Shown one piece after another: positions 24,259 to 64,000 of a DNA stretch of 64,000 bases. The DNA is from an uncultured Actinoplanes sp. Its GTDB lineage: Bacteria; Actinomycetota; Actinomycetes; Mycobacteriales; Micromonosporaceae. Made by a program: the position numbers and the translations under genes. The notes under the pieces are model-generated. The model did no database searches. It had not been told where the DNA came from and saw only the letters and a program-made list of their open reading frames with translations. Position 1 is the stretch's first letter, and the number at the start of each line of letters is the position of its first letter. The stretch lies in assembly GCA_964236515.1 (NCBI GenBank), contig CAXSDA010000014.1:76828-140827 (forward strand), in the 5' to 3' direction.

Positions 24259-25923
24259 TCAAAGCTGCTTGATGTCCACCACGGAGAAGCCCACTCGGCT
24301 GTCCGTGCCCTCTCCGGTCCCGGTCGCACCGAGGACGACCTTGCCGGTTCGCAAGCTCGGATCGTTGACGGTCGCCGCCATCACCTGCTTGCCGTCGACG
24401 GAGACAGTGGCGATGTCGTGGTGGATGGTGATCCCCAGCGCATGCCTACTGCCGGCGGTGAACGTGCTCAACGTCGCCTTCGCCAGCGGGTGCAGGTCGT
24501 CTACATCGTCGAGGGCAACCGCCATGTCGGTGGCGCATGCCGCGACCCGATAGCCGCTGTCCTTGACGTATCGGAACCACACGGTCGCACACGTGTCCTT
24601 GCTGCGAAGCCGCACGTCGACCGTGATGGACTGGTCGCCTGAGAAGGTGTCCGCGGGTCCCGGGCACTGGTAGGCCGTGATCTCTACCGGCGACACCACC
24701 AGCTCACCGTTCGTGAATGTGCAGCTGCCGGCCTCGGTCGACGCTGTCGACCACAGGCCGGGCCTGTCCAGCCGGTCGAAGACTCTCGGCCCTTGAACAT
24801 CGCGGGAGGATGACGAGGCCGACGGCGAGGTGAGGAGAGCGGTCGACCCTGCTCCGGAGCCGAGATCGTGACGGGCCACCAGCACCGCGGCCCCGGCGGT
24901 GGCAAGGACGACCAGCCCGGCGGCGGCCAGTTTCAGCGTACGGCGGGGAGCTTTGCGCACGACGGTCGTGACCGGCGCGACCGACTGCCCGCCGCTCATA
25001 TAGCGGCCGGAGTGCTGCGCCGCTTCAGCCGCGTGCCGCAATTCCGGATATGCGGCCAGGTCGACGGCTGCCTGGTAGGGGCCGGTTGTCAGCAACTGAT
25101 CGAGCAGATCGTGCGCGGTCGGCCGGTCCCCCGGCTCCTTGGCCAGAGTGAGGGCAACCAGATCCTTCAACTGGCCGGTGAGCCCGGTCAACACCGGCGG
25201 CTGGGTCAGGATCCGGGCGGCCGTGGCGGCGGCCGAGTCGCCCGCGAACGGCGTCCGCCCGGTGGCCGCGTACGCCACGACCGCCCCCCAGGCGAACACG
25301 TCGGCGGCTGGGGTGATCGCCCGGCTGTTGCCGTCGAACCGCTCCGGCGCCATGTACGCGACCGTGCCCACCATCTGGTCGGTCTTCGTGTGCTGGCTCG
25401 TCACCTCCAGCGCCCGGGCGATACCGAAGTCGATCACCTTGGGGGTGCCGAGCGAGAACAACACGTTGGCCGGCTTGAGGTCGCGGTGAATGACTCCGGC
25501 GCCGTGGATCGCCGCCAGCGCCGTCGCCACCCCGATCGCGACGCTGTGCAGGTTGCCGGCCGCGAGCGGGCCCTGATCACCGACCACCTGGGCCAGATTG
25601 GGCCCGTCGACGTACTCGACCACCAGGTACGGTGTGCGATGCTCGGGATCGGCGTCGAGCACCTCGGCGGTGCAGAACGGCGGAACCTGCCGGGCCCGGT
25701 TCACCTCGCTGCGGAACCGGGCCCGGAACTCGTCTTCAGCTGCGTACTCGGCCCGAATGACTTTGACCGCGACGAGCCGGCCCGAGGTGGCCCGGCCGAG
25801 GTACACGGTGCCCATCCCCCCTTGACCGAGACGCTCAAGCAACTCGTAACCGCCCAGGTGCCGAGGGTCACCAGGACGCAGCTCTTTGCTCACCGGCCGC
25901 AGGCTACTCGGCCGAGAAGCCAT
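24259..25923 (-). CDS. Membrane Ser/Thr protein kinase with C-terminal extracellular beta-rich domain
   Basis: GQGGMGTVY, VAVKVI, HRDLKPANV, DFG, GTVAYMAPE, DVFAWG; TM helix LKLAAAGLVVLATAGAAVLVA. Confidence 0.95.
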   Translation of the reverse strand: MASRPSSLRPVSKELRPGDPRHLGGYELLERLGQGGMGTVYLGRATSGRLVAVKVIRAEYAAEDEFRARFRSEVNRARQVPPFCTAEVLDADPEHRTPYLVVEYVDGPNLAQVVGDQGPLAAGNLHSVAIGVATALAAIHGAGVIHRDLKPANVLFSLGTPKVIDFGIARALEVTSQHTKTDQMVGTVAYMAPERFDGNSRAITPAADVFAWGAVVAYAATGRTPFAGDSAAATAARILTQPPVLTGLTGQLKDLVALTLAKEPGDRPTAHDLLDQLLTTGPYQAAVDLAAYPELRHAAEAAQHSGRYMSGGQSVAPVTTVVRKAPRRTLKLAAAGLVVLATAGAAVLVARHDLGSGAGSTALLTSPSASSSSRDVQGPRVFDRLDRPGLWSTASTEAGSCTFTNGELVVSPVEITAYQCPGPADTFSGDQSITVDVRLRSKDTCATVWFRYVKDSGYRVAACATDMAVALDDVDDLHPLAKATLSTFTAGSRHALGITIHHDIATVSVDGKQVMAATVNDPSLRTGKVVLGATGTGEGTDSRVGFSVVDIKQL

Positions 25924-25957
25924 CGGGTGCCACACCCGGCGCCATCCACTGATGTGA

Positions 25958-26716
25958 TCAAATAACTCTTCGCGTTCTCCGTTCGTCGAGATGGCTCTCC
26001 ATGTCTGCAGCATCGCGCGTGCCATCCGAGACAGCCGGCGCCGCCGCTGGCCTGTCCGGGCCTGGCACCACCGCAGCCACCCGGACGAAGCCGCCGTGCA
26101 CCTGCCAGCGTCCGGTCACTTCGGTCAGCGGTGGGTGGCCGTCCCGCCGCGGGCCAGGCCGCAGCAGCCGCGCCGTGAATGAGCCCGATGCGGTGAACCG
26201 AAGCTCCGCCTCTTCAAATCCGAGTTGCCGTTGCCCGGTGAGCGGATACCAAGTTTTGAACACGGTCTCCTTGGCGCAGAACAGCAACCGGTCCCAGTGC
26301 AGGCCGGGCACCACCCGGTGCAGCCGGGCCAGATGGTCGCGCTCGGCCGGAAGTGATACCGCATCCAGGACACCGACGGGCAACGCAGCGTGCGGTTCGG
26401 CGTCGATGCCGATTGCGGCCACCGTGCCGTACAGGGCCACGGCCGCCGCCCGGTAGCCCGCGCAGTGCGTGATGCTGCCGACCACCCCGTCCGGCCAGAG
26501 CGGTTCCCGGTCGGGCCCGCTGGGGATCGCCACCGCCGGCACTCCGAGCGCCACCAGGGCCGCACGGGCGCAGCGACGGGCGGTCACAAACTCGCGGCGC
26601 CGCGACGTCACCGCCCGCGCGACGGCCGCCTCCTCGCCCGGGAACACCGGCTCGTCCGGGTCGTCGGAGTACGCCTCCGCGGTCGCCACCCCGTCCGGTG
26701 TCAGCTGCCCGATCAT
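25958..26716 (-). CDS. 4'-phosphopantetheinyl transferase, PptT/EntD-like
   Basis: RRREFVTARRCARAAL, WPDGVVGSITHC, IGIDAEP, LLFCAKETVFKTWYP; ATGA-coupled to the upstream gene. Confidence 0.94.
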   Translation of the reverse strand: MIGQLTPDGVATAEAYSDDPDEPVFPGEEAAVARAVTSRRREFVTARRCARAALVALGVPAVAIPSGPDREPLWPDGVVGSITHCAGYRAAAVALYGTVAAIGIDAEPHAALPVGVLDAVSLPAERDHLARLHRVVPGLHWDRLLFCAKETVFKTWYPLTGQRQLGFEEAELRFTASGSFTARLLRPGPRRDGHPPLTEVTGRWQVHGGFVRVAAVVPGPDRPAAAPAVSDGTRDAADMESHLDERRTRRVI

Positions 26717-27555
26717 CGCGCCGGCGCGGAGGGGTCGAGCACCGGCCGCAGCAACTCGGGCGGACCGCCCCGGCGCCGCCACTCGCGCGGGTAACCCAGC
26801 GATACCTCTCGGAACGGCACGCCGTCGTGGTGCGTGGTCCGCGGGATGTGCAGGTGCCCGTAGACGGCCGAAGCCGCCCGGAACCGCACGTGCCAGTTGG
26901 CGGTCCGCTCCGTGCCGCACCACTGGGCGAACTCCGGGTAGAACAGCACGTCGGTGGGCTCGCGGACGAGCGGCCAGTGCGAGACCAGGACTGTCGGCAG
27001 CTCCGGGTCGCAGGCCTCAAGCCGTCGTTCGGTCTCGACCACCCGGGCATGGCACCACGCGGCCCGGCTCGGATACGGATCCGGGTGCAGCAGCATCTCG
27101 TCGGTGCAGACCACACCCCGTTCGTACGCCTCGGCCAGCGACTGTTCCTCGGTGGTTCCGGGCGCCCGGAACGAGTAGTCGTACAACGTGAACAATGGCG
27201 AGACGACGATCGGCCCGCCGACGCCGTTCCAGACCGGAAAGTCGTCCTCCGGCGTCGACACGCCCAGCCGACGGCAGACCTCCACCAGTTCGCGGTACCG
27301 GGCCTCGCCGCGCAGCGTGACCGGGTCCTCCGGATGCGTCCAAAGCTCGTGATTGCCTGGCGCCCAAATCACTTTGGCGAACCGCTCGGCCAGCCGGGCG
27401 AGGGTGTCCCGCACGTCGGCGAACAACTCGGCCACGTCCCCCGCCACGATCAGCCAGTCCCCCTCGTCCAGCGGCTGCAGCGCGTCGACGATCGGGCGGT
27501 TCTCGGCGTGGGCGACGTGCAAGTCGCTGACCGCGTACAGGGAGCCGGTGTTCAC
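26713..27555 (-). CDS. Calcineurin-like metallophosphoesterase, PptH-like
   Basis: SDLHV, VAGDV, PGNHELW, VSHWP, YGHLH motifs; GGAGA RBS before GTG 27555. Confidence 0.92.
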   Translation of the reverse strand: MNTGSLYAVSDLHVAHAENRPIVDALQPLDEGDWLIVAGDVAELFADVRDTLARLAERFAKVIWAPGNHELWTHPEDPVTLRGEARYRELVEVCRRLGVSTPEDDFPVWNGVGGPIVVSPLFTLYDYSFRAPGTTEEQSLAEAYERGVVCTDEMLLHPDPYPSRAAWCHARVVETERRLEACDPELPTVLVSHWPLVREPTDVLFYPEFAQWCGTERTANWHVRFRAASAVYGHLHIPRTTHHDGVPFREVSLGYPREWRRRGGPPELLRPVLDPSAPAR

Positions 27556-27744
27556 TTCTCCACGGTGCCCGGGCAACCCCTTCAACGCTCGTCCGATGGG
27601 CCAAGTTAGGGGTTGAAGTAGGGGGAGCGGCCGCGACTACCGTCCAACAGTCCCAGGAGAGGTGGGCGTATGGAGCCGTTGTCCGAGGCGGCCCGGGGCC
27701 AGCGCCGATCCGGAGACGCTCGCTGCAGTTCCGGTTCCCACCCA

Positions 27745-28630
27745 CCACGTGGCCGTGTACCTGCGGGTGGAGGATGTCGGCATGTTCGTCGGCGTGGCCG
27801 ACAAGACGTCCGCAAATCATTGCGCGTGGGACAGGTGCCGATGCTGGAACTGGCGCCCGGCGAAGTCCTGGTCGCGGTGATGGCCAGCGCGATCAACTAC
27901 AACACCGTCTGGTCGGCGATGTGCGAGCCGCTCCCGACGTTCCACTTCGTCCAGCGCTTCGCGGCCGCCGGCGGCTGGGCCGGCCGTCGCGATCGGCCGC
28001 ACCAAGTGGTCGTTCCGATGGCGCCGGGGTGGTGGCCTGGAACGGTTCGGGCGTACGGCGGTGGGGGCCGGCGACCATGTGGTGATCAGCCCGGCGTACG
28101 TGGACGAACAGGAACCGCTCAGCCACGCCGACGGCATGCTGGGCGCCGACCAGCTTGCCTGGGGGCTGGCCCACTACACGGTCGTCCGCCGTGCGCCGGC
28201 ACCGCGTACCGATGATGGTCAGCGACAAGTGCGCCCGGATGAAGCTAGGGCGACGTGTTGCTCTACTGGGGTGCGGCGGGGCTCAGAGCGTACGCGATCC
28301 AGCTGGTCCGCAACGGTGGGCGTCGCGGTCGGGTCGGCGGCCGAGGCGGACACGGCCCCGGCACTCGGCTGCGACATGGTTATCCGCCGGGACGAGATCA
28401 AGCTCGACGACAGTTGCGCGGACGACGCCGCCCGCGTGGTCGAGGTCGGCACACGACTCGGCTCCCTGATCCGGCGCGACCGGGGAGGACCGCACATCGC
28501 CTTCTAGCACGTCGGGGGGTCCACTTTCGGCGTCCCGGTGTTCGTCGTGCGCCGCGGCGGCACCGTGGTCACCTTCGGCTCGAGCACCGGTTTGACCACC
28601 GCTTCGACAACCGCCACCTCTACTCCCGAA
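27745..28630 (+). pseudogene. ccr: Crotonyl-CoA carboxylase/reductase remnant
   Basis: Fragments across three frames: DVRKSL..ELAPGEVLVAVMASAINYNTVWSA..PTFHF; SDGAGVV; VISPAYVDEQEP.HADGMLG..QLAWG; CAGTAYR; QLVRNGG; VRRGGTVVTFGSSTG; FDNRHLY. Multiple frameshifts and stops. Confidence 0.88.
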
Positions 28631-28888
28631 TTCTCGATTATCACGATCGCAGCACAGCCGTCCTTCTCCGCGACGGCGCCGGCGCGGCCGGGGACGGTAC
28701 TGGGATCTTCGACGTTGCGCTGGCCTCCCGTGGCGACCTCCACACCCTGATCCGGGTGGAAGCGGGTGGCAGTCGCCGAACGGCCTCAGCCGCCACGCTT
28801 GCGTAGGAAGGCAGTCTCCCCGGTGATTTCGGCGAAAGTATCGACTGCGGTGACGCCGGGCCGCAGCACAAGCTCGATCACGCGGACG

Positions 28889-29092
28889 CTATTCCGCGAC
28901 GTAAGTACGGCCTGTCCAATAATAAATCGCGCCGTCACTGGACGGTTCGCGCTCGAAATGTTCGTAGCCGCCGTAGTGGCAGACTTTGACGCAGTCATCG
29001 GCGCTCGAAACGAGCGGGTGGCGCAGCTCCTCGGGGAGCAATGCCGGGCCGCCGCGCAGGTCAGCAGTTACGAGACGTTGGGTGTCAGTCAT
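28889..29092 (-). CDS. Small DUF5988-like protein
   Basis: LRGGPALLPEELR..VKVCHYGGYEHFER..YYWTGRTYVAE pattern; GGAGG RBS. Confidence 0.8.
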   Translation of the reverse strand: MTDTQRLVTADLRGGPALLPEELRHPLVSSADDCVKVCHYGGYEHFEREPSSDGAIYYWTGRTYVAE

Positions 29093-29136
29093 CGTTACAC
29101 CTCCATCGGTCTGACCAGGAACTTACTTGCTGGGCC

Positions 29137-29152
29137 GCGGGGAATTCCCTAA
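29137..29152. promoter_or_regulatory. PAS-LuxR (PimM-type) operator-like site
   Basis: GCGGGGAATTCCCTAA, 13/16 to CTVGGGAWWTCCCBAG, upstream of the DUF5988-like gene. Confidence 0.6.
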
Positions 29153-29221
29153 AGCACTGGCGATCGACGAACGGTTCCAGTGTCCCGTGCCTGAAGTGAT
29201 TTTACGGTGTGAGTGCAGGGC

Positions 29222-29590
29222 ACTGAGCTTATTATCCCGTTAGGACGACCTTCTTCTGCCGGGCGGCGAGTTTCGGCCGGTAGCGGTGGGGTTTGAACGG
29301 GATTCGGATGCTGCCGCGAGCGCCTTGGTAGGCCTTGTCGGCGAACATCGTCACCTTTCGCTGCTCAGGGCGCCGATGATGTGATGGGTGCGGTCCGCCG
29401 TCCGGTCAGTAGAGCTTCTGGTCGGCGACCCGGTCGATCGGGATCAGGGTGCCATCGAGGATCGCGTACCCGAGCAGCCTGATCCTGTTCGTCGCTGTGG
29501 CCAGGTCGTCAGCGGTCGTGGCGGGCAGGTCGTGGCCTCGCGGACGTATCGCCAGGCCGTCATGACACCGATCTGGAACCCGGCCGCCAG
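29222..29590 (-). mobile_element. Degraded IS5-family (DDE_Tnp_4, IS112-like) transposase remnant
   Basis: Minus-strand fragments RLAAGFQIGVMTAWRYVREA, YAILDGTLIPIDRVADQKLY(stop), MFADKAYQGARGSIRIPFK. Confidence 0.75.
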
Positions 29591-29830
29591 CCGCCCGAGC
29601 AACGCGGCTTCGAGGTTCACCGGAAACGATGGGTGGTCGAACGAACTCTGACCTGGCTGACCGCCCACCGCCGGCTGGCCCGCGACTACGAACGCGACCC
29701 GGAAGTGTCCGCAGAACTGATCCGTCGGGCCGCCATCAACCAGATGCCGCCCCGTGGCAAACCCGCTGCACGACAGCAACGCCGCACCCTGCAACAAGCC
29801 CGAGCTACAACTCTCTAAAACACCCACTGA
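29590..29830 (+). mobile_element. 3' end of a second IS5-family transposase
   Basis: QRGFEVHRKRWVVERTLTWLTAHRRLARDYERDP, followed by a degenerate terminal repeat-like CTCTAAAACACCCACT. Confidence 0.8.
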
Positions 29831-29880
29831 ACTGAGGGGTTCTAGGGGAAACATTCGTTCATTCGTGGGATCACAGAGGC

Positions 29881-30210
29881 ATGAGCGAAGCCGACGAGCC
29901 TCAGCCGATCGTTTCCCTATTCGTCAATGAGGCCGAGAGCTGGGGTATCGATCCGCAGTTAATTCCGTTTATGATGACGGTGCCGTTCACGGCGAACAAC
30001 ACCGGCCGCCACCCCATTACCAAGCCCTACTATCCGCCCGAGCTGCCGGCGCTCAGCCCGAGCCCGATGCCGGCCGACCGCAAGACCGTGCGCATTCGGC
30101 TGCGCGTCCTACTGACGACGATCTGGATGACGCTGATCCTTCGCCGCAAGTCCGTCGCCCCGGCCGAGGAGCCGAACGCCGGAAGGCCGGAGCCGGACGA
30201 GACAGGCTGA
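29881..30210 (+). CDS. Hypothetical protein (109 aa) inside the cluster
   Basis: GAGG before ATG; stop 3 nt from the convergent TEII stop; in-frame TTA codon at 29959-29961. Confidence 0.55.
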   Translation: MSEADEPQPIVSLFVNEAESWGIDPQLIPFMMTVPFTANNTGRHPITKPYYPPELPALSPSPMPADRKTVRIRLRVLLTTIWMTLILRRKSVAPAEEPNAGRPEPDETG

Positions 30211-30213
30211 CCG

Positions 30214-30978
30214 TCAGCCTTGCCGCGCGGTGAGCAGGCGAACCGAGTCGAGTTCGGTCGCGATCTCGCGCTGGACCGCGCCCAGGTGAGCGACGATGAA
30301 AAAGTGGCCCCCCGGGTAGACGGCGCTGCGGAAGTCGCCCTCGGTGTGCAGCCGCCACGCCTGGGACTCCGGCACCGTCGTGAGGGGATCGCTGTCGCCG
30401 GTCAGGGCGACGATCCGACTGCTGATCAGGCTGTCCCCGGTACCCAGGTAGGACTCGATTGCGCGGTAGTCGGCGCGGATCGACGGCATCGCCATCTTCA
30501 GCACATCGTCGTCCAGCCGGGCGACGTCGGTGCCGCCCAGGCGGTGGAGCTCGGCGATGACGCCTTCGTCGTCGCGGCGGTGCACCGTCTCGCGGCGCTG
30601 GGTGCTGGGAGCGCGCCGACCGGAGGCGATCAGCGAACGCGGGCCGGGGCGTCCGGCTCGCTGAAGCCGCAACGCCGTTTCGAAGGCGAGAATGGCGCCC
30701 ATACTGTGCCCGAAGTAGACGGTCGGCTTCTCCGGGTCGTACGAAATCTCCTCGGCCAGCCGGTCGGCCATAGTGGCGACGTCAGCGATGCAGGGCTCGT
30801 GACGCCGGTCCTGACGTCCCGGGTACTGCACCGAGATGACGTCGGCCTCGGCGCCGAACCGCACGGAAATCGGGTGGTAGTAGCTCGCCGAGCCGCCGGC
30901 GTGCGGGAAGCACACCAGCCGGACGCTGCTCTGCGGGTTCGGATGGAATCGCATCAGCCAGCGGGAGTTGCTGTTCAC
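30214..30978 (-). CDS. Type II (editing) thioesterase
   Basis: LVCFPHAGGSAS, QYPGRQDR, GHSMG nucleophile, GGHFF; GTGA overlap with the aminotransferase stop. Confidence 0.95.
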   Translation of the reverse strand: MNSNSRWLMRFHPNPQSSVRLVCFPHAGGSASYYHPISVRFGAEADVISVQYPGRQDRRHEPCIADVATMADRLAEEISYDPEKPTVYFGHSMGAILAFETALRLQRAGRPGPRSLIASGRRAPSTQRRETVHRRDDEGVIAELHRLGGTDVARLDDDVLKMAMPSIRADYRAIESYLGTGDSLISSRIVALTGDSDPLTTVPESQAWRLHTEGDFRSAVYPGGHFFIVAHLGAVQREIATELDSVRLLTARQG

Positions 30979-32063
30979 GGTGTGATCCTCTCGACGGTGG
31001 GGCGGGATGGCCCGTGGTAGAACTGGCGGATCTGGGAGATGACGAATTCCTGATCGGCCGCTGTCATCGAGGTGTAGGTCGGCAGGTAGAAGCCGTCCCG
31101 GCTGAGCCGGCTGGCGTTGAGCGCCGGCCAATCGGGGTGCAGATAGCCGGGCTGGCGGCTCATCGGCTTGAAGAAGACCCGGGTCTCCACCCCCGCCGCG
31201 CGCAGAAACTCCCGCAGCGCTTCGCTGTCGCGGGCACAGATGTCGTACATCCAGAGCACGTCGCGCGGTGGCATCAGGGTGAGTTCGGGGATGTCCTGCA
31301 GACCGGCGTCGTAGCGTTTCTCGATCAAACTGCGGGCGGCGAGGATCTCGTCGAGGCGCTCCACCTGGGCGAGGGCCACCGCCGCCTGCATCGCCGTCAT
31401 CCGGAAGTTGTAGGCCAACTTCCTGTGCAGGAAGCTGTGGTCGGAGGTGAAGGCCATCCCGCGCAGATGCTCGAGCTGGCCGGCCAGCCGGGGGTCGGCC
31501 GTCAGGCACACGCCACCCTCGCCGGAGGTGATGATCTTGTTAGCGAACAGCGAGTAGCAGGCGATGTCGCCCACCGGCCGGACGCCGTGCGCCTCGGCCG
31601 AATCCTCGACCACCCGCAGGTTGTAGTCGTAGGCAAGGCCCATGATCGTGTCCATGTCACACCGCCGGCCGTACACGTGTACCGGCATGATGGCCCTGGT
31701 GCGGCTGGTGATCTTCTCCTCGATGCGGGTGACGTCGATGTTGAGATCGTCGGCGCAGTCGACGAAAACGGGTGTCGCGCCGACGTAGGTGACCGCCCAG
31801 GCCGAGGCGATCATCGTGAACTCGGGGACGATCACCTCGTCGCCCGGGCCGATGCGGAGGGCCCGCAAGGCGAGCGTCAGAGCGGCTGTTCCAGAGGAGC
31901 ACGCGATCGCGTGGGCGTAACCGTTGTAGGTGGCGAAGGCCTGCTCGAAGCGCTGAACGTAAGGCCCTTGCGACGAGATCCAGCCGGCGGTCACGGTGTC
32001 GGTGACGTACTCCAGCTCGCGTCCGTCGAGACAGGGTTTGGATACCGGGTACCGGAAGGTCAT
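30975..32063 (-). CDS. DegT/DnrJ aminotransferase, polyene mycosamine/perosamine synthase type (NysDII/AmphDII-like)
   Basis: YPVSKP..WISSQGPYV, SSGTAAL, EDSAEAHG, SLFANKIITSGEGG (PLP Lys), HSFLHRKLAYNFRM, DVLWMYD, FFKPMSRQP. Confidence 0.93.
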   Translation of the reverse strand: MTFRYPVSKPCLDGRELEYVTDTVTAGWISSQGPYVQRFEQAFATYNGYAHAIACSSGTAALTLALRALRIGPGDEVIVPEFTMIASAWAVTYVGATPVFVDCADDLNIDVTRIEEKITSRTRAIMPVHVYGRRCDMDTIMGLAYDYNLRVVEDSAEAHGVRPVGDIACYSLFANKIITSGEGGVCLTADPRLAGQLEHLRGMAFTSDHSFLHRKLAYNFRMTAMQAAVALAQVERLDEILAARSLIEKRYDAGLQDIPELTLMPPRDVLWMYDICARDSEALREFLRAAGVETRVFFKPMSRQPGYLHPDWPALNASRLSRDGFYLPTYTSMTAADQEFVISQIRQFYHGPSRPTVERITP

Positions 32064-32100
32064 GACCGTCCTCGCAAGGGTCCGCTGGTGGGCTGAGTGC

Positions 32101-33528
32101 TCAGAGCGCGATATTGCCGTGCGCGCCACGCCGCTGGGGCGCTGCCGCGATCGCCTCGGCCAGGTGCCGGCTCGTGCGGGCAGGCTCGATGACCTCGTCC
32201 ACCACCCCGATCTCCAGGGCTTTCGAAACGCCGCCGGCGAGGCGTTCGTGCTCGGCGACCAAGGTGGTGCGGAGCGCTTCGCGCTGGTGGTCCGGCGCCT
32301 CGGCGAGCTTGCGGCGATGCAGGATCTCGATGGCCGCGCCGGCGCCCATGACGGCGACCTCGGCTTCCGGCCAGGCGAAGACGGCCGTCGCCCCGAGCGC
32401 CTTGCAGTTCATGGCGATGTAGGCGCCCCCGTACGCCTTGCGGGTAATCAGCGTGACCGACGGCACGGCCGCCTCGGCGAAGGCGTGCAGCAGCTTCGCT
32501 CCGCGGCGGACCACGCCGTCCCACTCCTGCTGCACCCCGGGCAGATAGCCTGGAACGTCGACCAGGACGACCAGTGGTACCCCGAAGGCGTCGCACATGC
32601 GCACGAACCGGGCCGCCTTCTCCGCCGAGAGCGAGTCGAGGCAGCCGCCTTTGCGCAGCGGGTTGTTGGCCACCACGCCGACGCTGCGTCCGGCCAGGCG
32701 CCCAAACCCAATCACCATGTTGGGCGCCCACTTGGCCTGCAGCTCGACGAAACCGGCGCCGCCGGGGTCGTCGTCGAGCAGCTGATGGACCAGCGGGCGC
32801 ACGTCGTAGGCCCGTTTGGCCGATTCCGGCAACAACGCCCGCGGGTCCCCTGTCCGGGCCCGGGCCGGATCGACGTGGCCGGGGTCGGCCAGCAGCTCGA
32901 CGAGTCGCCGGGTGCGCTGGTACGCGTCGGTCTCGGAGGTGGCGATCACGTGGGCGACGCCCGAGCGGCGGCCGTGGGCGTCGGGGCCGCCCAACGCCTC
33001 CATGTCGATCTGCTCGCCGGTGACCGAGCGGACCACGTCCGGGCCCGTGATGAAGACGCGGGCCTGCTCGGCCATGATGACGATGTCGGTGAGCGCCGGT
33101 CCATAGGCCGCGCCACCGGCCGCCGGCCCGACGACCACGGACAGCTGCGGGATGCGCCCCGAGGCGCGCACCATCGCCGCGAACATCTGCCCGATGCCGT
33201 CCATGGAGGCAACGCCTTCGGCCAGTTTGGCCCCGCCGGAGTGCCAGATGCCGACGACCGGGATGCCTTCGAGCAGAGCCCGATCGATCCCCTGGGCGAT
33301 GACCGGGCAGTCGTCGGCGCCGATCGCGCCACCCATCGAGCGCCCGTCGGTGCAGTAGACGATGACCGGGCATTCGGCGATCCGGCCGCGGGCGACGACG
33401 ACGTTTGTGCGCCGCGCGATGGTCTCGAGCGACTCCGCGTCGAGGAGTTGCCCGATGCGGTAGTACGGTTCTCGCTGGTCCAGACGCGACTCGGCCGAAC
33501 CTTGCTCAGTCACTACGGGGAGCGCCAT
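32101..33528 (-). CDS. Acyl-CoA carboxylase carboxyltransferase subunit, AccD6-like
   Basis: YCTDG..MGGA, WHSGGAKLAEG, GPAAGGAAYGPALTD, FITGPDVV, DVPGYLPG, TRKAYGGAY, GVVDEVI. Confidence 0.93.
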   Translation of the reverse strand: MALPVVTEQGSAESRLDQREPYYRIGQLLDAESLETIARRTNVVVARGRIAECPVIVYCTDGRSMGGAIGADDCPVIAQGIDRALLEGIPVVGIWHSGGAKLAEGVASMDGIGQMFAAMVRASGRIPQLSVVVGPAAGGAAYGPALTDIVIMAEQARVFITGPDVVRSVTGEQIDMEALGGPDAHGRRSGVAHVIATSETDAYQRTRRLVELLADPGHVDPARARTGDPRALLPESAKRAYDVRPLVHQLLDDDPGGAGFVELQAKWAPNMVIGFGRLAGRSVGVVANNPLRKGGCLDSLSAEKAARFVRMCDAFGVPLVVLVDVPGYLPGVQQEWDGVVRRGAKLLHAFAEAAVPSVTLITRKAYGGAYIAMNCKALGATAVFAWPEAEVAVMGAGAAIEILHRRKLAEAPDHQREALRTTLVAEHERLAGGVSKALEIGVVDEVIEPARTSRHLAEAIAAAPQRRGAHGNIAL

Positions 33529-33888: not shown

Positions 33889-34671
33889 TCAGGAGCGGAC
33901 GTAGTCGGGCAAGACCTGGGGCGGCCAGGAGCCGATCCGGAAAAGACCCATGGAATACGACTTCGACACCAGCGCTGCCCGATTGGGCACCTTGAACTGA
34001 CGGAGCATGTTGCCGACGTGGTATTCGACTCCCTGCCGGCTGAGAAACAGCCGCGAAGCCAGCTGAACCGTTGGCGCGCCGGCGGCCACGCCTTCCAAGA
34101 TCTGCGCATTTATTTGCGAGAGCAGTTTCGTGGGGCTTATCAGGGTCCGCCGGTTTCCCCCGTCCTCGGCGTTGATCATGATCAGAATTGATTCGACCCG
34201 GCCGCCGGCGTCCTCATTGGCGCAGGCGGTCACCGTTCCGCTGAGGGTCGTGCTGGTTTCCCACAGAGCGGCCAGGTTCTCGACGAAACTGTTACTGCGC
34301 CGCTGGACCAGGCGATCGAACTGCCGCGTCATGACACCACGGACGCTGGGGTGTAACAGTTCGCAGATATCGCGTCCCAGCAGCGTGTCCGCCGTGCGCC
34401 CGCACTGTTCGACGAAGTATCGGTTGTGGTCGCTGATCCGTGCACTGGCATCGAGCACGGCGATCGCGGCATTGACGTTCTCCATGGCGGACTGCAATTG
34501 GCCCGGAGTCTGCGTCCGCGGTTTCACCAGAGAATCCTCAGCAGGCGCCGCAACGAAATCGCTCAACCCGGGCACACCGGTTGCGAAAACCACGATAGGT
34601 CTCCTATCTGAGATAGAGAAGGCGCGTCTGGGGGGCAGAGTTCTCTTCCTGCGCTCGGATGTCACGGACAT
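33889..34671 (-). CDS. PAS-LuxR pathway regulator (PimM/NysRIV/AmphRIV family)
   Basis: PAS segment; ILEGVAAGAPTVQLASRLFLSRQGVEYHVGNMLRQFKVPNRAALVSKSYSMG..SWPPQVLPDY. True start may be downstream of 34671. Confidence 0.93.
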   Translation of the reverse strand: MSVTSERRKRTLPPRRAFSISDRRPIVVFATGVPGLSDFVAAPAEDSLVKPRTQTPGQLQSAMENVNAAIAVLDASARISDHNRYFVEQCGRTADTLLGRDICELLHPSVRGVMTRQFDRLVQRRSNSFVENLAALWETSTTLSGTVTACANEDAGGRVESILIMINAEDGGNRRTLISPTKLLSQINAQILEGVAAGAPTVQLASRLFLSRQGVEYHVGNMLRQFKVPNRAALVSKSYSMGLFRIGSWPPQVLPDYVRS

Positions 34672-35468
34672 GCCCGCCTGATTCAGCGCGCAATTGCGGA
34701 GAGAGCCCGCGCTTGCTGAGACAATGCCGGGCGGTGCATTGCGGGGCCCGGCAACATCAAGCTAGTAATGCCTCTCGGACCTGCCAACCCCTAGTGCCCG
34801 CGCAGGTCCCCTAAGGCAGGCCCGGTGCCCGATTGCCCTGGAGCACTGTCAATCCACCGTGTTTGCCATGAAGGAAGGAGCGGTTGGTTCGGGCCAAACC
34901 ATAGGTGAACCGCCGGCGTCGGGCACATGGCCGAGGACGCGGTGAGAGCGGGTATCGGAGGGGCAGACCCCGCACTTCGGTAGATTGAGAGCCGTCGATA
35001 TAGCGCGTGGCCTGGGGCCAGCCAGTTAATCAATCCGGGCATCACAGCGCCACTCCGCACCCCGGTACCTGATGTGAACGCCGGACCGTCGGCCCAAATC
35101 ATACGTTAACCCAATGGTCAACCCCTATCCCGCCCCTGGAAACGAACCCTCGGGTTGCCCGTTCAACGATCGGCCGGGAAAGAATAAGGGAGCTTGAGAA
35201 TCGAGGATCGCGACCTCGCCTACCGGGCAGAGGGGTTCTAAATCGCGCGAATCAGACGCGTAACGCTACCAAGCCCCCTAAATACCCACCACGGTGATCA
35301 CGTAGTCGCTGGAGTGAGATTGTTCGTACCCGGCGCTGCTCAACGACTAGGAAGACTCTGGCGCACGAACGGGCACCGTCGCCGCTACGACTGTCGCAGC
35401 AAAGGGGCCGCCGCTAAATTGCGATGTGATGACGAGCTCCTGATAGGGGTCGGCCGAGACGACCCGTA

Positions 35469-38285
35469 GTGGATGTCGACCTGGAAAAGAAGGAAAGCAT
35501 GTCGCTTGTGGGACGCGACGGAGAGTTGAGGCGGCTGCAGGCCGGATTCGACGAGAGCGCCCGGGGCAATGGGCGGATCCTGCTGATCGGCGGACCGGTC
35601 GCGATCGGAAAGACCGGGCTTCTCGAGGCCTTCGCCGGGCGGGCGCGGTCGGCCGGCGCCACGGTGGCCAGCGCCTCCGGGTCGAGCAACGAGCGTAATC
35701 TTTCGCTGAGCGTCATCGGGCAGCTCTTCGCCAGCGCCGGCGTGCCGTCGAACGTCGTCAACGGCGTGATGGACATAGGGCAATGCTTGGCCGACGTCGA
35801 ACCGGGGTCGTCCACCACCGAACGGACCCTGGTCACCCTGCTGCAGGCGGTCGCCGCCGCCCTGCTGGCCCTGGCCGTTAAACAGCCCCTGGTGATCGCG
35901 GTCGATGACATCGACGTCAGCGACGATCTCTCCCTGCGGGCCATCCTGTACCTGGTTCGCCGCATCCGGTCCGCCAACGTCCTGGTGCTGCTCACCCAGC
36001 TCGCGTCCCCCCAGCCGACCCGACCGAACTACTACGCCGAGCTGATGCGACAGCCGCACTGCAGCAGCCTCACGCTCGCGCCACTCTCCCGCCAGGACAC
36101 CGTCGCATTGCTCAGCCGGGACCTGGGCCCCGTCCGCGCAGCCCGGATCGGAGCGGAGTGTTACGACGTGACGGGCGGCAACCCGATGCTGATCCGGGCG
36201 CTTGGGACCGATCAGCCGGCACCGGCCGACGATGCGTCCATCGCGCGCGAGGATCGGCTGGTCGTCGGAAACACGTTCGAACGGGCCATCATCAGCTGCC
36301 TATATCGATCACCCCCCGGATACCGCGAGGTAGCCCACGCGATCGCCATGCTGGACAACTGGACCTCGCCGGCTTTGATCAGCCGGCTGTCGGGCATGGA
36401 CACGGCGGCGGTCGACCGGGCCCTGGCCGGTTTGCGCAGCGGCGGGCTGCTTTATTCGCAACGTCTGCGTCACCACGTGGCCCGGCATGCCATCCTGGCC
36501 GACATTCCCGGCCCAGCGGTCTCGCAGCTGCACCGGCGGGCGGCCGAACTTCTGCACATGGACGCCGCGACGCCGATGGCGATCGCGGAGCACCTGCTGC
36601 AGAGCGACGACGTCGCGCCGCCCTGGGCCGCGGCCACGCTGCGCCTCGCGGCGGACAACGCACTCGACTCCGGTGAGGCCGTGTTCTCCGCGGACTGCCT
36701 ACGGGCGGCGTACGAATGCAGCCTCGACGACAGCGAGCGCGCCCAGGTCCGAGCTGCGGTCGTCCGGGCTCAGTGGCGCGAGGATCCGGCCCTGGCCCTG
36801 CGCTACTTCGACGAGCTCAATGTCGCCATCCGGCGCGGGTACCTGACCGGCCGCGACGCTCTCATGCAGATCTGCCGTATGCTCTGGTACGGCCAGACCG
36901 ACGAGGCTCTGCTGGCCATCGAACGGTTCGGCCGGGCGAGTGACTTCACCTCCGCCGAACTGGTCGCCGATCTGCGCTTCACCCGGGCCTGGGTAAAGTC
37001 CGTGTACCCCGGGCTGCCGATCGAGCAGCAGTTTTCGTCGATGATCGACGCGGCGGCGCCGCTGAGTGCCACGGCTGTGCCCGAACTGAAAGCCGCGGAT
37101 GTGCTCAGCGCCGTACTTGACCGCGGCGTCGACGAGGGCGCCGTGGTGATCATGGAACAGGTACTCAAGCGGACTGTACTGGACGACTACACCCTGATGC
37201 TGCTGACGACCGGGGTCGGCAGCCTGCTGCACGCCGACCGGCTCGAGGAGGCGGCGAGTTGGTGCGACCGGCTCGGTCAGCAGGCCCGGACCCGCCGGGC
37301 GCCGACCTGGCAGGCGATCGTGATGGCCCTCAGGGCCACGGTCTCGCTGCGTGCGGGCGACCTGGAGATCGCCGCCGAGGGTTGCCGCCGGGCCTTCGAC
37401 CTGCTCGAGCCGGACGGCTGGGGGGTGGCCATCGGACTGCCGTTGTCGACCCTGTTGCAGGCAGCGACGTCGAGCGGTGATCTGAGCGCCGCCGCCCGCT
37501 GGCTCGACCAGCCGATCCCGGAGTCCATGTTCCAGAGCACCTTCGGGCTCGCCTACCTACATGCCCGGGGCAGCTACTATCTCGGGACCGGCCGGCCGAA
37601 AGCCGCGCTATCCGACTTCTACGCCTGCGGCAATCTGATGGTGAGCTGGGGAATAGACACCCCCGCCTACGTACCCTGGCGGGCGGAGGCGGCCCAGGCG
37701 TGGCTGCTGATCGGCCGGCCCGGGACCGCCCAGGAACTGATCAACGATCAGCTGCACATCCTGGGCGACCAGCCCTCCCGAGCCCGGGGCCTGACCCTCT
37801 GGCTGCAGGCCGCGATCACCGCTGATCGGCAGCATCTGGCGTTGCTCACCGAGGCGGTCAGCATCCTGGCGACGACCGGGGACCGCCTCTCGTACGCCCG
37901 GGCCGTTCACGACCTCGAACGGGCGCAGCGCCAGTTAGGTGATGGCCTCGCCGCCCGGCAGCAGGCCGATGGACGAGCGTGGTCGGTGGCGGCCGAGTTC
38001 AACACCGGGCAGTCACAGCAGATCACACTGCCCCGCGCCGCCCACCCCCCGGGCATGGGAACTTTCCGGCCGACGGGTGTGGCATCCACGCTCAGCGACG
38101 CGGAGCTGCGGGTAGCGACGCAGGCGGCCCGGGGCCGGACAAACCGAGAGATCGCCCAGGCCCTGTTCATCACGGTGAGCACAGTGGAGCAGCACCTGAC
38201 GCGCGTCTACCGCAAGCTGGGCGTCAACCGCCGCGCCGACCTGGCGTTACGGCTACGCACCCCACGCGCCAACCTCGCCAGCTGA
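35469..38285 (+). CDS. LAL family (large ATP-binding LuxR) regulator
   Basis: LVGRDGEL, Walker A GPVAIGKT, Walker B VIAVDD, TGGNP, C-terminal LSDAELRVA..GRTNREIAQALFITVSTVEQHLTRVYRKLGV. Confidence 0.95.
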   Translation: MDVDLEKKESMSLVGRDGELRRLQAGFDESARGNGRILLIGGPVAIGKTGLLEAFAGRARSAGATVASASGSSNERNLSLSVIGQLFASAGVPSNVVNGVMDIGQCLADVEPGSSTTERTLVTLLQAVAAALLALAVKQPLVIAVDDIDVSDDLSLRAILYLVRRIRSANVLVLLTQLASPQPTRPNYYAELMRQPHCSSLTLAPLSRQDTVALLSRDLGPVRAARIGAECYDVTGGNPMLIRALGTDQPAPADDASIAREDRLVVGNTFERAIISCLYRSPPGYREVAHAIAMLDNWTSPALISRLSGMDTAAVDRALAGLRSGGLLYSQRLRHHVARHAILADIPGPAVSQLHRRAAELLHMDAATPMAIAEHLLQSDDVAPPWAAATLRLAADNALDSGEAVFSADCLRAAYECSLDDSERAQVRAAVVRAQWREDPALALRYFDELNVAIRRGYLTGRDALMQICRMLWYGQTDEALLAIERFGRASDFTSAELVADLRFTRAWVKSVYPGLPIEQQFSSMIDAAAPLSATAVPELKAADVLSAVLDRGVDEGAVVIMEQVLKRTVLDDYTLMLLTTGVGSLLHADRLEEAASWCDRLGQQARTRRAPTWQAIVMALRATVSLRAGDLEIAAEGCRRAFDLLEPDGWGVAIGLPLSTLLQAATSSGDLSAAARWLDQPIPESMFQSTFGLAYLHARGSYYLGTGRPKAALSDFYACGNLMVSWGIDTPAYVPWRAEAAQAWLLIGRPGTAQELINDQLHILGDQPSRARGLTLWLQAAITADRQHLALLTEAVSILATTGDRLSYARAVHDLERAQRQLGDGLAARQQADGRAWSVAAEFNTGQSQQITLPRAAHPPGMGTFRPTGVASTLSDAELRVATQAARGRTNREIAQALFITVSTVEQHLTRVYRKLGVNRRADLALRLRTPRANLAS

Positions 38286-38348: not shown

Positions 38349-40793
38349 TCAGTCGTCGGTTCGGAAGTCGGGTGGCGGAAGACGGCGTATGGCCACGGTG
38401 GGGAAGTCCCGCTTGAGCCCGTCCGGCCTCGGGTCGTACTGGTGCGGATCTTCGCCGGCGGCCTCAATCACCGCGGCCGCGTCGAGCCGGGACATGCAAG
38501 GTGTCCTGCGCCCGCACCAGGCGCAGGTGCGATCACCCTTGTCGACGTGACGCTGATAGGCCTCGATCGAGAGGTGATGGGTGATCGATCCACGCAGGCC
38601 GGTGATGGCTTCGTGCATCTTCGCGGGGGGATAGTCCGGCTCGACGACCGGGATCGGCTCGGGGTCGCTCGCCGGCGGATAGAAGGTGCCGGAAGCGAGG
38701 CCGTTCCCGGCGAGGTGGCGCCCGACCGCAGCCGCCGGCCCATCGGGAATCCGGGGTGTGTCAGGGACCGGGGGAAGGTCGGGCTGGGCGGGGGCCTCGA
38801 CCGCCCGGCCGACCAGAGGCTCCGGCTGCTCCCTGGTCTCATCCGCCGTCGAGGCGTCATCGTCGGGCTCCTGCGGGGGCACCCCCAAGGCGTACAGGCG
38901 GGCATAGTGGCCGTGCGCGGCGATCAGCTCGTCATGAGTACCGCGTTCGACAATATTTCCGTTCTGCATGACCAGGATCAGGTCGGCTTCGCGGATGGTG
39001 GACAGCCGGTGGGCGATCACGAAGCTGGTGCGTCCCTCGCTCAGCTGCGCCAGCGCCTGCCGGATATCCAGCTCGGTGCGGGTGTCCACCGAGCTGGTGG
39101 CCTCGTCCAGCAGCAGGATGCGCGGCTCGGCGAGGAAGACCCGCGCCACCGTCACCAGCTGCTGCTGGCCGGTGCTGATGCCGGCCGAGTCGGGCATGAG
39201 TATCGTGTCGTAGCCCTCGGGCAGCGTGTCGACGAACCGGTCGACGCAGGCCGCCCGAGCGGCGGCCTCGATCTCCTCCCGGGAGGCGTCCGGCCGGCCG
39301 TAGGCGATGTTCTCCGCGATGGTTCCCTCGAAGATCCAGCTGTCCTGGCTGACCAGCCCGATCTCGCGGCGCAGGTCGTCGCGGGTCATCCGGGCGATGT
39401 TCACGCCGTCGAGCATGATGCGGCCCATGTCGAGCTCGTAGAAACGCAACAACAGGTTGCCGAGAGTGCTCTTGCCGGCGCCCGACTCGCCGACTACGGC
39501 AACAGTCTGTCCCGGTTCGACGACCAGGTTGAGGTCCTGGATCAACGGCTGGTCCGGGCTGTAGCTGAACGAGACCCGGGAGAACTCGACGCGGCCCTCG
39601 ACAGTCGCCAGGCGCAGCGGCTCGTCCGGGTCCGGTGACTCCTCCTCGACGTCGAGAATCTCGAAGACGCGCTGGGCGGAGACGTAGCCGGACTGAAGCA
39701 CCCCGGCGACGTTGGTGACCTCGGCGAGGGACTGCCCGAATTGACCCGAGTACTGGATGAAGGCCTGGACGTCGCCGACGGAGATCATCCCGCTGCCGAT
39801 GCGCAACGCACCGACGACCGCGACCGCGACGTAGTTGAGGTTCGTGATGAGTCGCGTCCCCGGCTCGATCGAGCTGGCCAGGAACTGAGCCTTGCCCGCG
39901 GCGTGCAGCATCTTGGCGTTGTGACCGTCGAAGTCGCGCTCGACCACCTCACGGGTGCCGAACCCCTTGACCAGCGCGTGCCCGGTGTACATCTCCTCGA
40001 CGTAGCCGTTGAGCGCCCCGGTGGCGGCCCATTGCTGGCCGAAGCGCAATCGGGCCCGTTTGCCGATGCCGTAGGACAGCACCAAGGTCAGCGGGACGCT
40101 GACGAGGACCACGGCCATCAGTAGCGGGGCAATCAGGTACATGACCGCGAGCAGGCCGATGACCGTGAAGATCTGAGTGAGCACGCTGCTGACGGTCTGT
40201 TGCAGCGTTCGCTGGATGTTGTCGATGTCGTTGGTCATCCGGCTCAGGACTTCGCCCTTGCTGATGGTGTCGAAGGCGCTGAGGGGCAGCCGGCTCAGCT
40301 TGTCCTCGAGCCGTTCCCGCAGATCGAAGACCAGCCGCTGAACGACGACGACGATCAGCCGGCCCTGGATAAACAGGCAGAGCACGTTGGCCATGTAGAT
40401 GGCGAGCGCGATCAGCAGCACATGCTCGATGGCGGCGAAGTCGATGCCTCGGCCGGGGATGACATTCAGTTTCTTGACGATCAGGGCGAGATTGTTCTCA
40501 TCCTTTTCTGCCAGGTACTGCAGGGCGACGTCCTGGGTCACCCCGGGAGCCCGGCGACCGACTTCGCGGCCGATCACGCCGGAGACGATGAGGTCGGTTG
40601 CCCGGCCGAGTAGTTTCGGCCCGGCCAGGCTGAGCGCGACGCTGGCCATACCGAACAACAGCGAGAGCGCGACGATGTACCACTGCGGCGTGAGCAGCTG
40701 CATCAGGCGCCCGACGATGCCCGGCGGCTTCTGTGGTTGCCGGGGCAGCGGTGCCGCCGCCTTTTCCGCTTTCGGTGCCGTGGCGACACTCAT
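38349..40793 (-). CDS. ABC exporter subunit (TMD-NBD) with a ~175-aa C-terminal extension
   Basis: GESGAGKST, ISTGQQQ, ILLLDEATSSVD, AHRL; then a Pro/acidic linker and HVDKGDRTCAWCGRRTPC. ATGA-coupled to the upstream subunit. Confidence 0.93.
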   Translation of the reverse strand: MSVATAPKAEKAAAPLPRQPQKPPGIVGRLMQLLTPQWYIVALSLLFGMASVALSLAGPKLLGRATDLIVSGVIGREVGRRAPGVTQDVALQYLAEKDENNLALIVKKLNVIPGRGIDFAAIEHVLLIALAIYMANVLCLFIQGRLIVVVVQRLVFDLRERLEDKLSRLPLSAFDTISKGEVLSRMTNDIDNIQRTLQQTVSSVLTQIFTVIGLLAVMYLIAPLLMAVVLVSVPLTLVLSYGIGKRARLRFGQQWAATGALNGYVEEMYTGHALVKGFGTREVVERDFDGHNAKMLHAAGKAQFLASSIEPGTRLITNLNYVAVAVVGALRIGSGMISVGDVQAFIQYSGQFGQSLAEVTNVAGVLQSGYVSAQRVFEILDVEEESPDPDEPLRLATVEGRVEFSRVSFSYSPDQPLIQDLNLVVEPGQTVAVVGESGAGKSTLGNLLLRFYELDMGRIMLDGVNIARMTRDDLRREIGLVSQDSWIFEGTIAENIAYGRPDASREEIEAAARAACVDRFVDTLPEGYDTILMPDSAGISTGQQQLVTVARVFLAEPRILLLDEATSSVDTRTELDIRQALAQLSEGRTSFVIAHRLSTIREADLILVMQNGNIVERGTHDELIAAHGHYARLYALGVPPQEPDDDASTADETREQPEPLVGRAVEAPAQPDLPPVPDTPRIPDGPAAAVGRHLAGNGLASGTFYPPASDPEPIPVVEPDYPPAKMHEAITGLRGSITHHLSIEAYQRHVDKGDRTCAWCGRRTPCMSRLDAAAVIEAAGEDPHQYDPRPDGLKRDFPTVAIRRLPPPDFRTDD

Positions 40794-42520: not shown

Positions 42521-42578
42521 GGGCACACCCTCCGGGAGCCAAGCCGGGAACGTATAACGCATTCGACCATTGAGCCCG

Positions 42579-42627
42579 CTTAGGGCATCCCTAGTCTTCG
42601 ATCCGCTCCGATCGCTGGTTTCCCTAG
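42579..42627. promoter_or_regulatory. Two PAS-LuxR operator-like sites
   Basis: CTTAGGGCATCCCTAG (42579-42594, 12/16) and TCGCTGGTTTCCCTAG (42612-42627, 11/16) in the divergent ABC/gmd gap. Confidence 0.6.
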
Positions 42628-42729
42628 GGCTGCGCCGATTGTCTTGACCGGGATGGCGCCGCGCTGGGAAGGTCCAGATCACCTGACCATTGGCGCGAGC
42701 GGAAACGACACGGCAGAGAGGCGGGCTCG

Positions 42730-43955: not shown

Positions 43956-44321
43956 TTAGAGCTCCGACGCCATGTTGATGATGCCGACGTTGTTGCCCTG
44001 CGGGTCCGAGATCTGGGCGTACTCGTGGCCGCCACCGAGGTGCTTCGGCGGCATCAGAACCTTGCCGCCCTGCTCCTCGACCTTGCGCAGGGTCGCCTCG
44101 ACGTCGTCCACCACGACGACGAAGGTGGCGAAGTTCGGAACGTCGCCGCCGGTGGCGAACAGCGCGCCGCTGATGGTGCCGGCCGGCGTGGTGACGACGC
44201 GGAACGGCTTGTCGCCGTCGAGCACGCCCCAGCCGAACAGCTCAGCGTAGAACTTGGCGGTGACGTCGGGCTGGTCCGTGCCGACTGAGAACCAGCCGAC
44301 GCTGTTGGTCTTACCGGGCAT
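43956..44321 (-). CDS. VOC (glyoxalase/bleomycin-resistance) family protein
   Basis: VGWFSV..AKFYAELFGW..VDDVEATLRKVEEQGGKVL..ISDPQGN; GAGGAG RBS. Confidence 0.9.
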   Translation of the reverse strand: MPGKTNSVGWFSVGTDQPDVTAKFYAELFGWGVLDGDKPFRVVTTPAGTISGALFATGGDVPNFATFVVVVDDVEATLRKVEEQGGKVLMPPKHLGGGHEYAQISDPQGNNVGIINMASEL

Positions 44322-44391
44322 GACAGTTCTCCTCGCGTAGTGTGCCGGTCCCCAATTGATCGGCCTTACTGAGGACAGTAGAGGGATCCGG

Positions 44392-44407
44392 CTGGAGCTT
44401 TCCCTAG
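44392..44407. promoter_or_regulatory. PAS-LuxR operator-like site, best match in the window
   Basis: CTGGAGCTTTCCCTAG, 14/16 to CTVGGGAWWTCCCBAG, 70 nt upstream of the VOC start. Confidence 0.65.

Positions 44408-44531: not shown

Positions 44532-64000
<19,469 letters not shown>

Follow-up and report, generated by a model that had tools for sequence, protein, structure and literature searches.

An overlapping pptH-pptT gene pair at the edge of a glycosylated-polyene-type polyketide synthase cluster in an uncultured Actinoplanes sp.

In Mycobacterium tuberculosis, PptH removes the phosphopantetheine arm of carrier proteins in a Mn/Fe-dependent reaction and PptT attaches it. The genes pptH (Rv2795c) and pptT (Rv2794c) form one operon (PMC8842310), and mutation of C225 or H246 (H246N) inactivates the PptH enzyme (PMC8557913). 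The study that described these mutants states that PptH appears limited to mycobacteria and that the physiological function of phosphopantetheine (Ppant) hydrolases "remains to be determined". Similar gene neighbours have been annotated in polyene clusters. The nystatin P1/NPP clusters of Pseudonocardia carry a 4'-phosphopantetheinyl transferase (PPTase; NypF/NppF) and a metallophosphoesterase, NypZ, to which no function was given (PMC2942817). The ECO-02301 cluster contains a thioesterase (ORF25), a PPTase (ORF28), a metallophosphoesterase (ORF29), a LAL regulator (ORF30) and a carboxyltransferase (ORF31), and a neotetrafibricin-type cluster has the same kinds of gene (PMC8312574). The PPTase NysF is reported, in the citation of Volokhan 2005 given by PMC9813960, as a negative regulator of nystatin production. 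Pairs of a PPTase and a "metallophosphoesterase" in polyene clusters are therefore already annotated, and what is added here is a proposed link to PptH: in the literature searched, we found no paper connecting the polyene-cluster metallophosphoesterases to this enzyme. We analysed a 64,000-nucleotide stretch of DNA (the window) from an uncultured Actinoplanes sp., in which a metallophosphoesterase gene and a PPTase gene lie beside a polyene-type polyketide synthase (PKS) cluster. In our view, the two genes are probably a functional pptH-pptT operon, the counterpart of the M. tuberculosis one, whose working clients are the acyl carrier proteins (ACPs) of the adjacent polyene PKS.

Both genes are on the minus strand and together occupy exactly positions 25958-27555, as given in an earlier note on this DNA. 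The pptH-like gene (27555..26713; GTG at 27555, TGA at 26715-26713) encodes a binuclear metallophosphoesterase of 280 aa, a predicted phosphopantetheinyl hydrolase. The protein matches the Pfam family Metallophos (PF00149, E 6e-12), and its sole match in the PDB at E<=0.01 was the M. tuberculosis PptH structure 6UNC (E 1.5e-102). The alignment spans residues 5-275 of the 280, with 57.8% identity over 270 aa. The motifs SDLH, GDVAE and GNHE, the His in SHWPL and the motif GHLHIP are all identical in the 6UNC alignment. The Cys of a WCG motif, which aligns with C225, and the His that aligns with H246 are also kept, given an offset of 3 between the 6UNC chain and the published numbering that was deduced from these same two residues in PMC8557913. 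The protein thus shows both full-length homology to a characterised PptH and the motifs of the binuclear site.

The pptT-like gene (26716..25958, minus strand; ATG at 26716-26714, stop at 25960-25958) encodes a Sfp-type PPTase of 252 aa with the expected two-domain architecture, 4PPT_N (PF17837, E 7.5e-27) followed by ACPS (PF01648, E 4.8e-12). The PptT structures of M. tuberculosis and M. abscessus match it at E ~2e-62, and it is 52.3% identical to M. tuberculosis PptT over 216 aa; residues ~217-252 form a C-terminal tail (~35 aa) beyond the region of PptT homology. The sequences GIDAEPH, THCAGY and FCAKE..K.W are conserved, GIDAEPH and FCAKETVFKTW aligning with GIDAEPH and FCAKEATYKAW of the M. 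tuberculosis enzyme. We take GIDxE to be the Mg-binding Asp/Glu motif and FxAKEAxxK the catalytic Glu/Lys motif of the PptT structures. The NCBIfam models PptT (NF050105) and Npt (NF042923) match end to end with 239 bits, under their cut-offs of 365 and 370. Both are "exception" models made for the named proteins, so the end-to-end match below these cut-offs marks the protein as a related orthologue-grade enzyme and not as the named protein itself.

The stop codon of the first gene overlaps the start codon of the second by 4 nt, as the earlier note had observed: the ATGA at 26713..26716 of the minus strand (TCAT on the plus strand) can be read directly from the sequence. The identical overlap was found at 40 of the 41 distinct junctions compared between pptH and pptT in genomes of other actinomycetes and is therefore a conserved property of the operon, not a chance feature, implying that translation of pptT is probably coupled to that of pptH. 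The hydrolase gene is also upstream of a PptT-type PPTase gene in one operon, as expected for PptH. All together, as judged by sequence, the pair is an orthologue-grade pptH-pptT operon and its identification as PptH and PptT is secure; the reading as PptH-like and PptT-like proposed in the earlier note is borne out by 58% and 52% identity to the M. tuberculosis enzymes and by intact catalytic motifs in both proteins.

To which carrier proteins may the pair be directed? We made an inventory of the genome assembly (7.62 Mb in 111 contigs, 96% complete), in which the cluster of the window lies at the end of contig C14. A search with PF01648 returned three PPTases: AcpS on C22, the window PptT, and a 242-aa enzyme on C55 that is Sfp-type, carries an AASDHPPT_N N-terminal domain and is essentially unrelated in sequence to the window PptT. 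The window PptT is the only PptT-type PPTase, and PptH is single-copy. The proposal that the pair is an extra, cluster-borne copy beside a housekeeping one is thus not supported, as the genome holds no second PptT-type or PptH gene. Nor is the window PptT additional to a general Sfp-type PPTase, as a dedicated enzyme would be: the other Sfp-type enzyme sits in a cluster of its own on C55.

Matches to type I KS, AT and ACP domains, ~20 modules in all, were confined to the end of C14, the start of C17 and four small contigs (C89, C94, C100 and C111), which is consistent with one fragmented cluster distributed over these six contigs. Among the 24 carrier domains detected in the genome (PF00550), 21 belong to the adjacent PKS, one is the fatty acid synthase ACP (C3), and the remaining two share C55 with its PPTase, at a distance of 3-12 kb. 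Because 21 of the 24 are found in the adjacent polyene PKS, the pair most likely serves this synthase, and by elimination its ACPs are most likely the only plausible bulk substrate. With the polyene ACPs as near-sole clients, the distinction between housekeeping and dedicated enzymes largely collapses in this genome. The earlier note would have given up a cluster function if the pair proved to be the sole housekeeping copy; to the letter this is so, yet almost no other client is encoded. C55 holds the only condensation domain of the genome. At ~6-39 kb of this contig (loci L003 and L085), this domain, two carrier proteins, a KS-like gene, an acyl-CoA dehydrogenase-like gene, a MATE-like transporter and the PPTase make up a small second cluster.

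The association of the pair with PKS genes recurs in other genomes. We compared 91 distinct PptH loci, consisting of the window, the 80 best genome matches (numbered L005-L084) and extra congeners, over 10 kb on each side. Markers of type I PKS, TEII (type II thioesterase), carboxyltransferase or GDP-mannose 4,6-dehydratase (GMD) were present at 23 of the 91 loci, and these loci are scattered over the PptH tree, requiring at least 15 label changes, at least 4 of them forced by well-supported branches. A TEII gene directly abuts PptH at four loci (L021, L059, L072 and L065), and a carboxyltransferase 62-69% identical to that of the window lies near PptH at four (L018, L043, L070 and L071). In Actinoplanes couchii (L079), the pair is inside a homologous cluster, between the PKS/GMD/PAS-LuxR genes and the ABC/LAL genes; in Mangrovihabitans endophyticus (L018, on the same contig as L086), the order is GMD, PAS-LuxR, LAL, carboxyltransferase, PptH, PptT. 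A clade of 21 coupled pairs from Micromonospora has its own conserved, PKS-free context, whereas of the 29 coupled pairs outside this clade, 16 have PKS-type neighbours. By contrast, none of 20 stand-alone PptT loci of congeners has a PKS, thioesterase or carboxyltransferase marker. Since relatedness among the genomes makes the loci non-independent, we give these figures as counts and not as a statistical test. The link between the pair and the polyene PKS is nevertheless well supported by inventory and recurrence together. It amounts to more than the proximity on which the earlier note relied, but the pair is not an extra dedicated copy.

Upstream motifs shared with cluster promoters had been read in the earlier note as a hint of co-regulation. 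A shared motif is indeed present: CAACCCCTW occurs in four exact copies in the window, against 0.2 expected from shuffles of the whole window. Two copies, inverted with respect to each other, are in the 114-nt divergent spacer that precedes pptH (27556..27669), at 27574-27582 on the plus strand and 27607-27615 on the minus strand, and the other two are in the spacer between the PAS-LuxR and LAL genes. Because many 8-mers recur (78 of them occur at least four times in the 6.8 kb of non-coding window DNA, against 56 in shuffles), this count is weak evidence when taken alone, and the better evidence comes from enrichment upstream of PptH across genomes. At the 80 other PptH loci, the 8-mer is no commoner overall than words of the same composition; however, 8 of its 39 copies (at 8 of the 80 loci) fall within 100 nt upstream of PptH, where ~0.2 would be expected. 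Moreover, 7 of 40 copies are accompanied by TAnnnT at 16-19 nt spacing, against a background of 0.26%.

The full form, TAGGGGTTG-N20-TAGC(C/T/A), is promoter-like, with a -35-like TTGNNN, 17 nt and a -10-like TAGCNT. It precedes the window PAS-LuxR gene (34785-34793, read on the minus strand from 34794) and, in three other genera, immediately precedes PptH genes that stand alone (L027 at 9949, L035 at 9961 and L074 at 9961); all three of these adjoin LAL regulator genes. Further copies of the full form are found at 58 in L027, 4250 in L035 and 20352 in L074. In the pptH spacer of the window, the better-oriented copy points away from pptH, towards a dead gene described below; the copy facing pptH lacks a -10 element and is separated from the start codon by only 19 nt. 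The 145 nt upstream of pptH share 20 11-mers with the rest of the window (15 expected), and local alignment of the pptH spacer with the regulator spacer gave a score of 23 (null mean 21, maximum 29), with no extended similarity. A scan of 25700-30300 for sigma-70-type promoters and terminators gave nothing useful. The PimM/PAS-LuxR operator CTVGGGAWWTCCCBAG was also tried as a sign of co-regulation and rejected: two sites were found in the window when up to 3 mismatches were allowed (3.3 expected), neither of them near pptH. The motif is thus real, but its orientation, the lack of extended similarity and the lack of PimM-box enrichment make it ambiguous in this respect, and co-regulation of pptH with the cluster is possible.

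The cluster adjoining the pair has the gene content of a glycosylated polyene macrolide biosynthetic gene cluster of the nystatin/amphotericin type. Its last recognisable gene towards the pair encodes the TEII (30978..30214, minus strand, GTG start; Pfam Thioesterase, E 4.4e-48) and lies 2.7 kb upstream of pptH, so that the placement of the pair at the edge of the PKS cluster was roughly right. Pfam matches then define a DegT aminotransferase (30975-32129), a carboxyltransferase (32101-33528), a PAS-LuxR regulator (34671..33889), a LAL regulator (35469-38285), two ABC transporters (38349-42745), the GMD (42730-43800) and a glyoxalase-fold protein (43956-44489). The first PKS gene begins at 44532; from there, a modular type I PKS on the minus strand (44532..63998) runs off the window, with repeated KS-AT-DH-KR-ACP modules and four ACPs in the window, as mapped by Pfam and by KS, AT and ACP matches. 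The polyene assignment rests on the KS-AT-DH-KR-ACP runs together with the GMD, DegT, ABC pair, PAS-LuxR, LAL and TEII genes of the window. The stop codon of the DegT gene and the start codon of the TEII gene overlap as GTGA at 30975-30978, making a second translationally coupled pair in the cluster.

The stretch between the pair and the cluster (27670..30213) consists of gene debris: frameshifted pieces resembling crotonyl-CoA carboxylase/reductase (CCR), a piece with faint resemblance to KAS III, and traces of transposase. Over these ~2.5 kb, the GC3 frame plot shows no sustained coding frame, the coding signal is low, and the GC content drops to 0.59-0.65 around 28750-29850. The CCR-like pieces, at ~27830-28510, were recognised by motifs and by tblastn similarity (54-56%) to open reading frames (ORFs) adjoining PptT or the carboxyltransferase gene in L021 and L043. 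Weak transposase-like fragments lie at ~29444-29854. All Pfam matches of the debris ORFs were below cut-off (ACP_syn_III, E 1.9e-4; DDE_Tnp_1_2, E 0.016; HTH_Tnp_4, E 0.071). The debris suggests a past rearrangement at the cluster border.

On the other side of the pair is a Ser/Thr protein kinase gene (24259..25923, minus strand; Pfam Pkinase, E 5e-45; likely ATG at 25923). Only 34 nt, with no terminator-like site, separate the pptT stop codon from this likely ATG on the same strand, and the kinase gene may share the pptH-pptT transcript. In two congeners, kinase-domain homologues are found 5-7 kb from PptT (68% identical in L036 and 77% in L111). When this flank (window positions 1-26000) was compared with 96 PptH/PptT loci, no synteny was detected at >=40% identity and >=50% coverage; the kinase-domain matches fell below this filter and came up at lower thresholds only. 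A second gene for an AAA_16 and GerE regulator (LAL-like, 631 aa) lies at 12397-14292, 12 kb from the pair in the direction away from the cluster genes, and the cluster may thus really end further out than the TEII.

PptH-type proteins are widespread. At least 558 relatives were confirmed in a scan of the genome collection, and in a protein search 7998 of 8000 scored candidates matched at E<=1e-20; the view that PptH is limited to mycobacteria is contradicted by both. Micromonosporaceae, Streptosporangiales, Pseudonocardiaceae and Streptomyces are rich in orthologues, which show 58-75% identity. The two genes are not always adjacent: roughly 40 of the 90 distinct PptH genes lack a neighbouring PptT, and in several congeners the two genes are on different contigs or megabases apart. 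They are convergent in L098 (genome G012), and their order is reversed in L043.

The strongest alternative to our reading is that the genes are a general housekeeping pair in an incidental position, namely an ordinary Sfp-type PPTase and a hydrolase brought beside the cluster by rearrangement. It draws on the fact that the window gene is the sole PptT-type copy of the genome and on the behaviour of PptT in the genus. Among 24 congener genomes of one Actinoplanes-like GTDB genus, PptT-type genes were found in 23, the sole negative genome being 54% complete, and PptH in 14. In many congeners, PptT stands alone, apart from PptH, in conserved, core-like neighbourhoods free of PKS genes. The pptH-pptT linkage is also ancient across the order, the two genes being present or absent together in other families (the same 7 of the 16 sampled), and the Micromonospora clade of 21 coupled pairs has no PKS context.

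Several of these facts weigh directly against assigning the pair to the polyene PKS. PptT is present in 23 of 24 congeners, mostly stand-alone and at non-PKS sites, and would therefore appear to act as a general-purpose enzyme in this genus. Between the pair and the TEII lie 2.7 kb of pseudogenes and transposase-like remnants, and the pair may owe its present position to a rearrangement. Neither the window PptH nor the window PptT is closer to polyene-associated copies than to others, and we did not find a convincing promoter common to pptH and the cluster, the PimM box not being enriched in the window. Finally, carrier proteins could be missing from the inventory because the assembly is 96% complete and in 111 contigs.

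Several observations stand on the other side. The cluster and its fragments make up only ~2% of the genome, and for this reason chance adjacency of a functionally matched pair is unlikely. They also contain 21 of the 24 carrier domains detected. The neighbourhood that harbours the stand-alone PptT in seven congeners also exists here (C7:143-177 kb, flanking genes 63-84% identical), but the PptT slot (C7:159115-160413) holds an unrelated ORF and neither PptT nor a PptT remnant at E<=1. In the PptT tree, the window protein has a long branch and groups with Micromonosporaceae copies, most of which are coupled to PptH; it falls outside the clade of these stand-alone genes (97% SH-aLRT). The phylogenetic check suggested in the earlier note thus places the protein among coupled copies but reveals no special closeness to the polyene-associated ones. 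Last, the same pair is found inside or beside homologous clusters elsewhere. On balance, we regard the housekeeping explanation as unlikely. We give very little credence to a further alternative, in which the phosphoesterase is a nucleotide phosphodiesterase ("CpdA") or acts on CoA-derived small molecules, its coupling to the PPTase serving for example to clear 3',5'-ADP: homologues are indeed labelled generic phosphoesterase, "metallophosphoesterase" or "3',5'-cyclic AMP phosphodiesterase CpdA" in databases, many PptH loci lack an adjacent PptT and PptH assays come from mycobacteria alone, but the CpdA names are automatic annotations, the full-length identity to characterised PptH and its standing as sole PDB match speak for PptH, the residues needed for activity of the M. 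tuberculosis enzyme are conserved, and the conserved coupling of its translation to that of a PPTase is in keeping with an enzyme that counteracts the PPTase on a shared substrate.

We thus return to a pptH-pptT operon that serves the adjacent PKS. Homology, intact motifs, coupling, the inventory of genes and carriers and the recurrence of the association elsewhere are what we observed, and we infer from them the enzymatic activities, the client set and a possible physiological role of PptH, be it the reversible holo/apo switch or the recycling of stalled acyl-ACPs suggested in the earlier note, or editing. PptT would load the serine of apo-carrier domains with 4'-phosphopantetheine taken from CoA, and PptH, as a binuclear metallophosphoesterase, would hydrolyse that phosphodiester and regenerate the apo-carrier. 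The 4-nt overlap would couple translation such that no "writer" is made without the "eraser" and their ratio is fixed. The predicted targets of PptT are the ACP domains of the adjacent ~20-module glycosylated-polyene-type PKS, the only modular PKS of the genome. PptH would most likely reset these carriers, either by stripping mis-primed or blocked arms or by limiting holo-ACP and the drain on CoA, alongside the TEII.

Tentatively, and as a possibility that we hold with low confidence, TEII, PptH and PptT might recur together as a "carrier-domain maintenance cassette" in type I PKS clusters of very large size, polyene ones in particular. In such a cassette, TEII would clear wrong acyl groups, PptH would remove the mis-primed, oxidised or stalled arms for which clearing is not possible, and PptT, translated together with it, would re-prime the carriers; the TAGGGGTTG-N20-TAGC element might link pptH to regulators of the cluster in several genera. 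The purpose of removing Ppant from carriers is a question that has stood for AcpH since 1967 and for PptH since 2019, and a maintenance cassette, if true, would provide the first physiological role for PptH-type hydrolases. Once recognised as PptH, the "metallophosphoesterases" of polyene clusters would become testable parts of PKS quality or flux control. For yield engineering, deletion of pptH or rebalancing of pptT might raise holo-ACP levels and titres. An organism with one PKS and one pair would moreover offer a simple, essentially one-client natural system in which to study PptH function.

How does the locus compare with the known systems? E. coli AcpH catalyses the same reaction, from holo-ACP to apo-ACP, and its physiological role is likewise undetermined (PMC8557913), but it has an HD-family fold and not that of a calcineurin-like metallophosphoesterase, and its gene has no coupled PPTase partner. 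NysF of the nystatin cluster of S. noursei, likened here by description and not by sequence, is also a Sfp-type PPTase at the edge of a polyene cluster; unlike the window, the nys cluster has no metallophosphoesterase partner (PMC2942817). The gene set of the ECO-02301 and neotetrafibricin-type linear polyene clusters matches that of the cluster edge in the window. These clusters, compared by gene table and not by sequence, are from Streptomyces or Streptosporangium hosts, specify another class of polyene and have the PPTase before the phosphoesterase. A 73%-identical homologue is named FunC11 in UniRef. NypF and NypZ are a PPTase and a metallophosphoesterase in a glycosylated polyene cluster with thioesterase, GMD, aminotransferase, ABC and PAS-LuxR genes (PMC2942817), but their arrangement as described ("downstream of nypH") differs, the comparison being again by description and not by sequence. 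The counterpart in M. tuberculosis is Rv2795c-Rv2794c. The window PPTase differs from M. tuberculosis PptT by its C-terminal tail of ~35 aa and its NCBIfam PptT score under the cut-off, and the client sets also differ: PptT of M. tuberculosis is essential and has many clients (mycolic acids, phthiocerol dimycocerosates (PDIM) and siderophores), whereas the Actinoplanes genome has no mycolate system and 21 of its 24 detected carrier domains are in one adjacent PKS. In both organisms, however, the two proteins are homologous over their full length, the hydrolase gene comes first in a single operon, and the catalytic motifs are the same.

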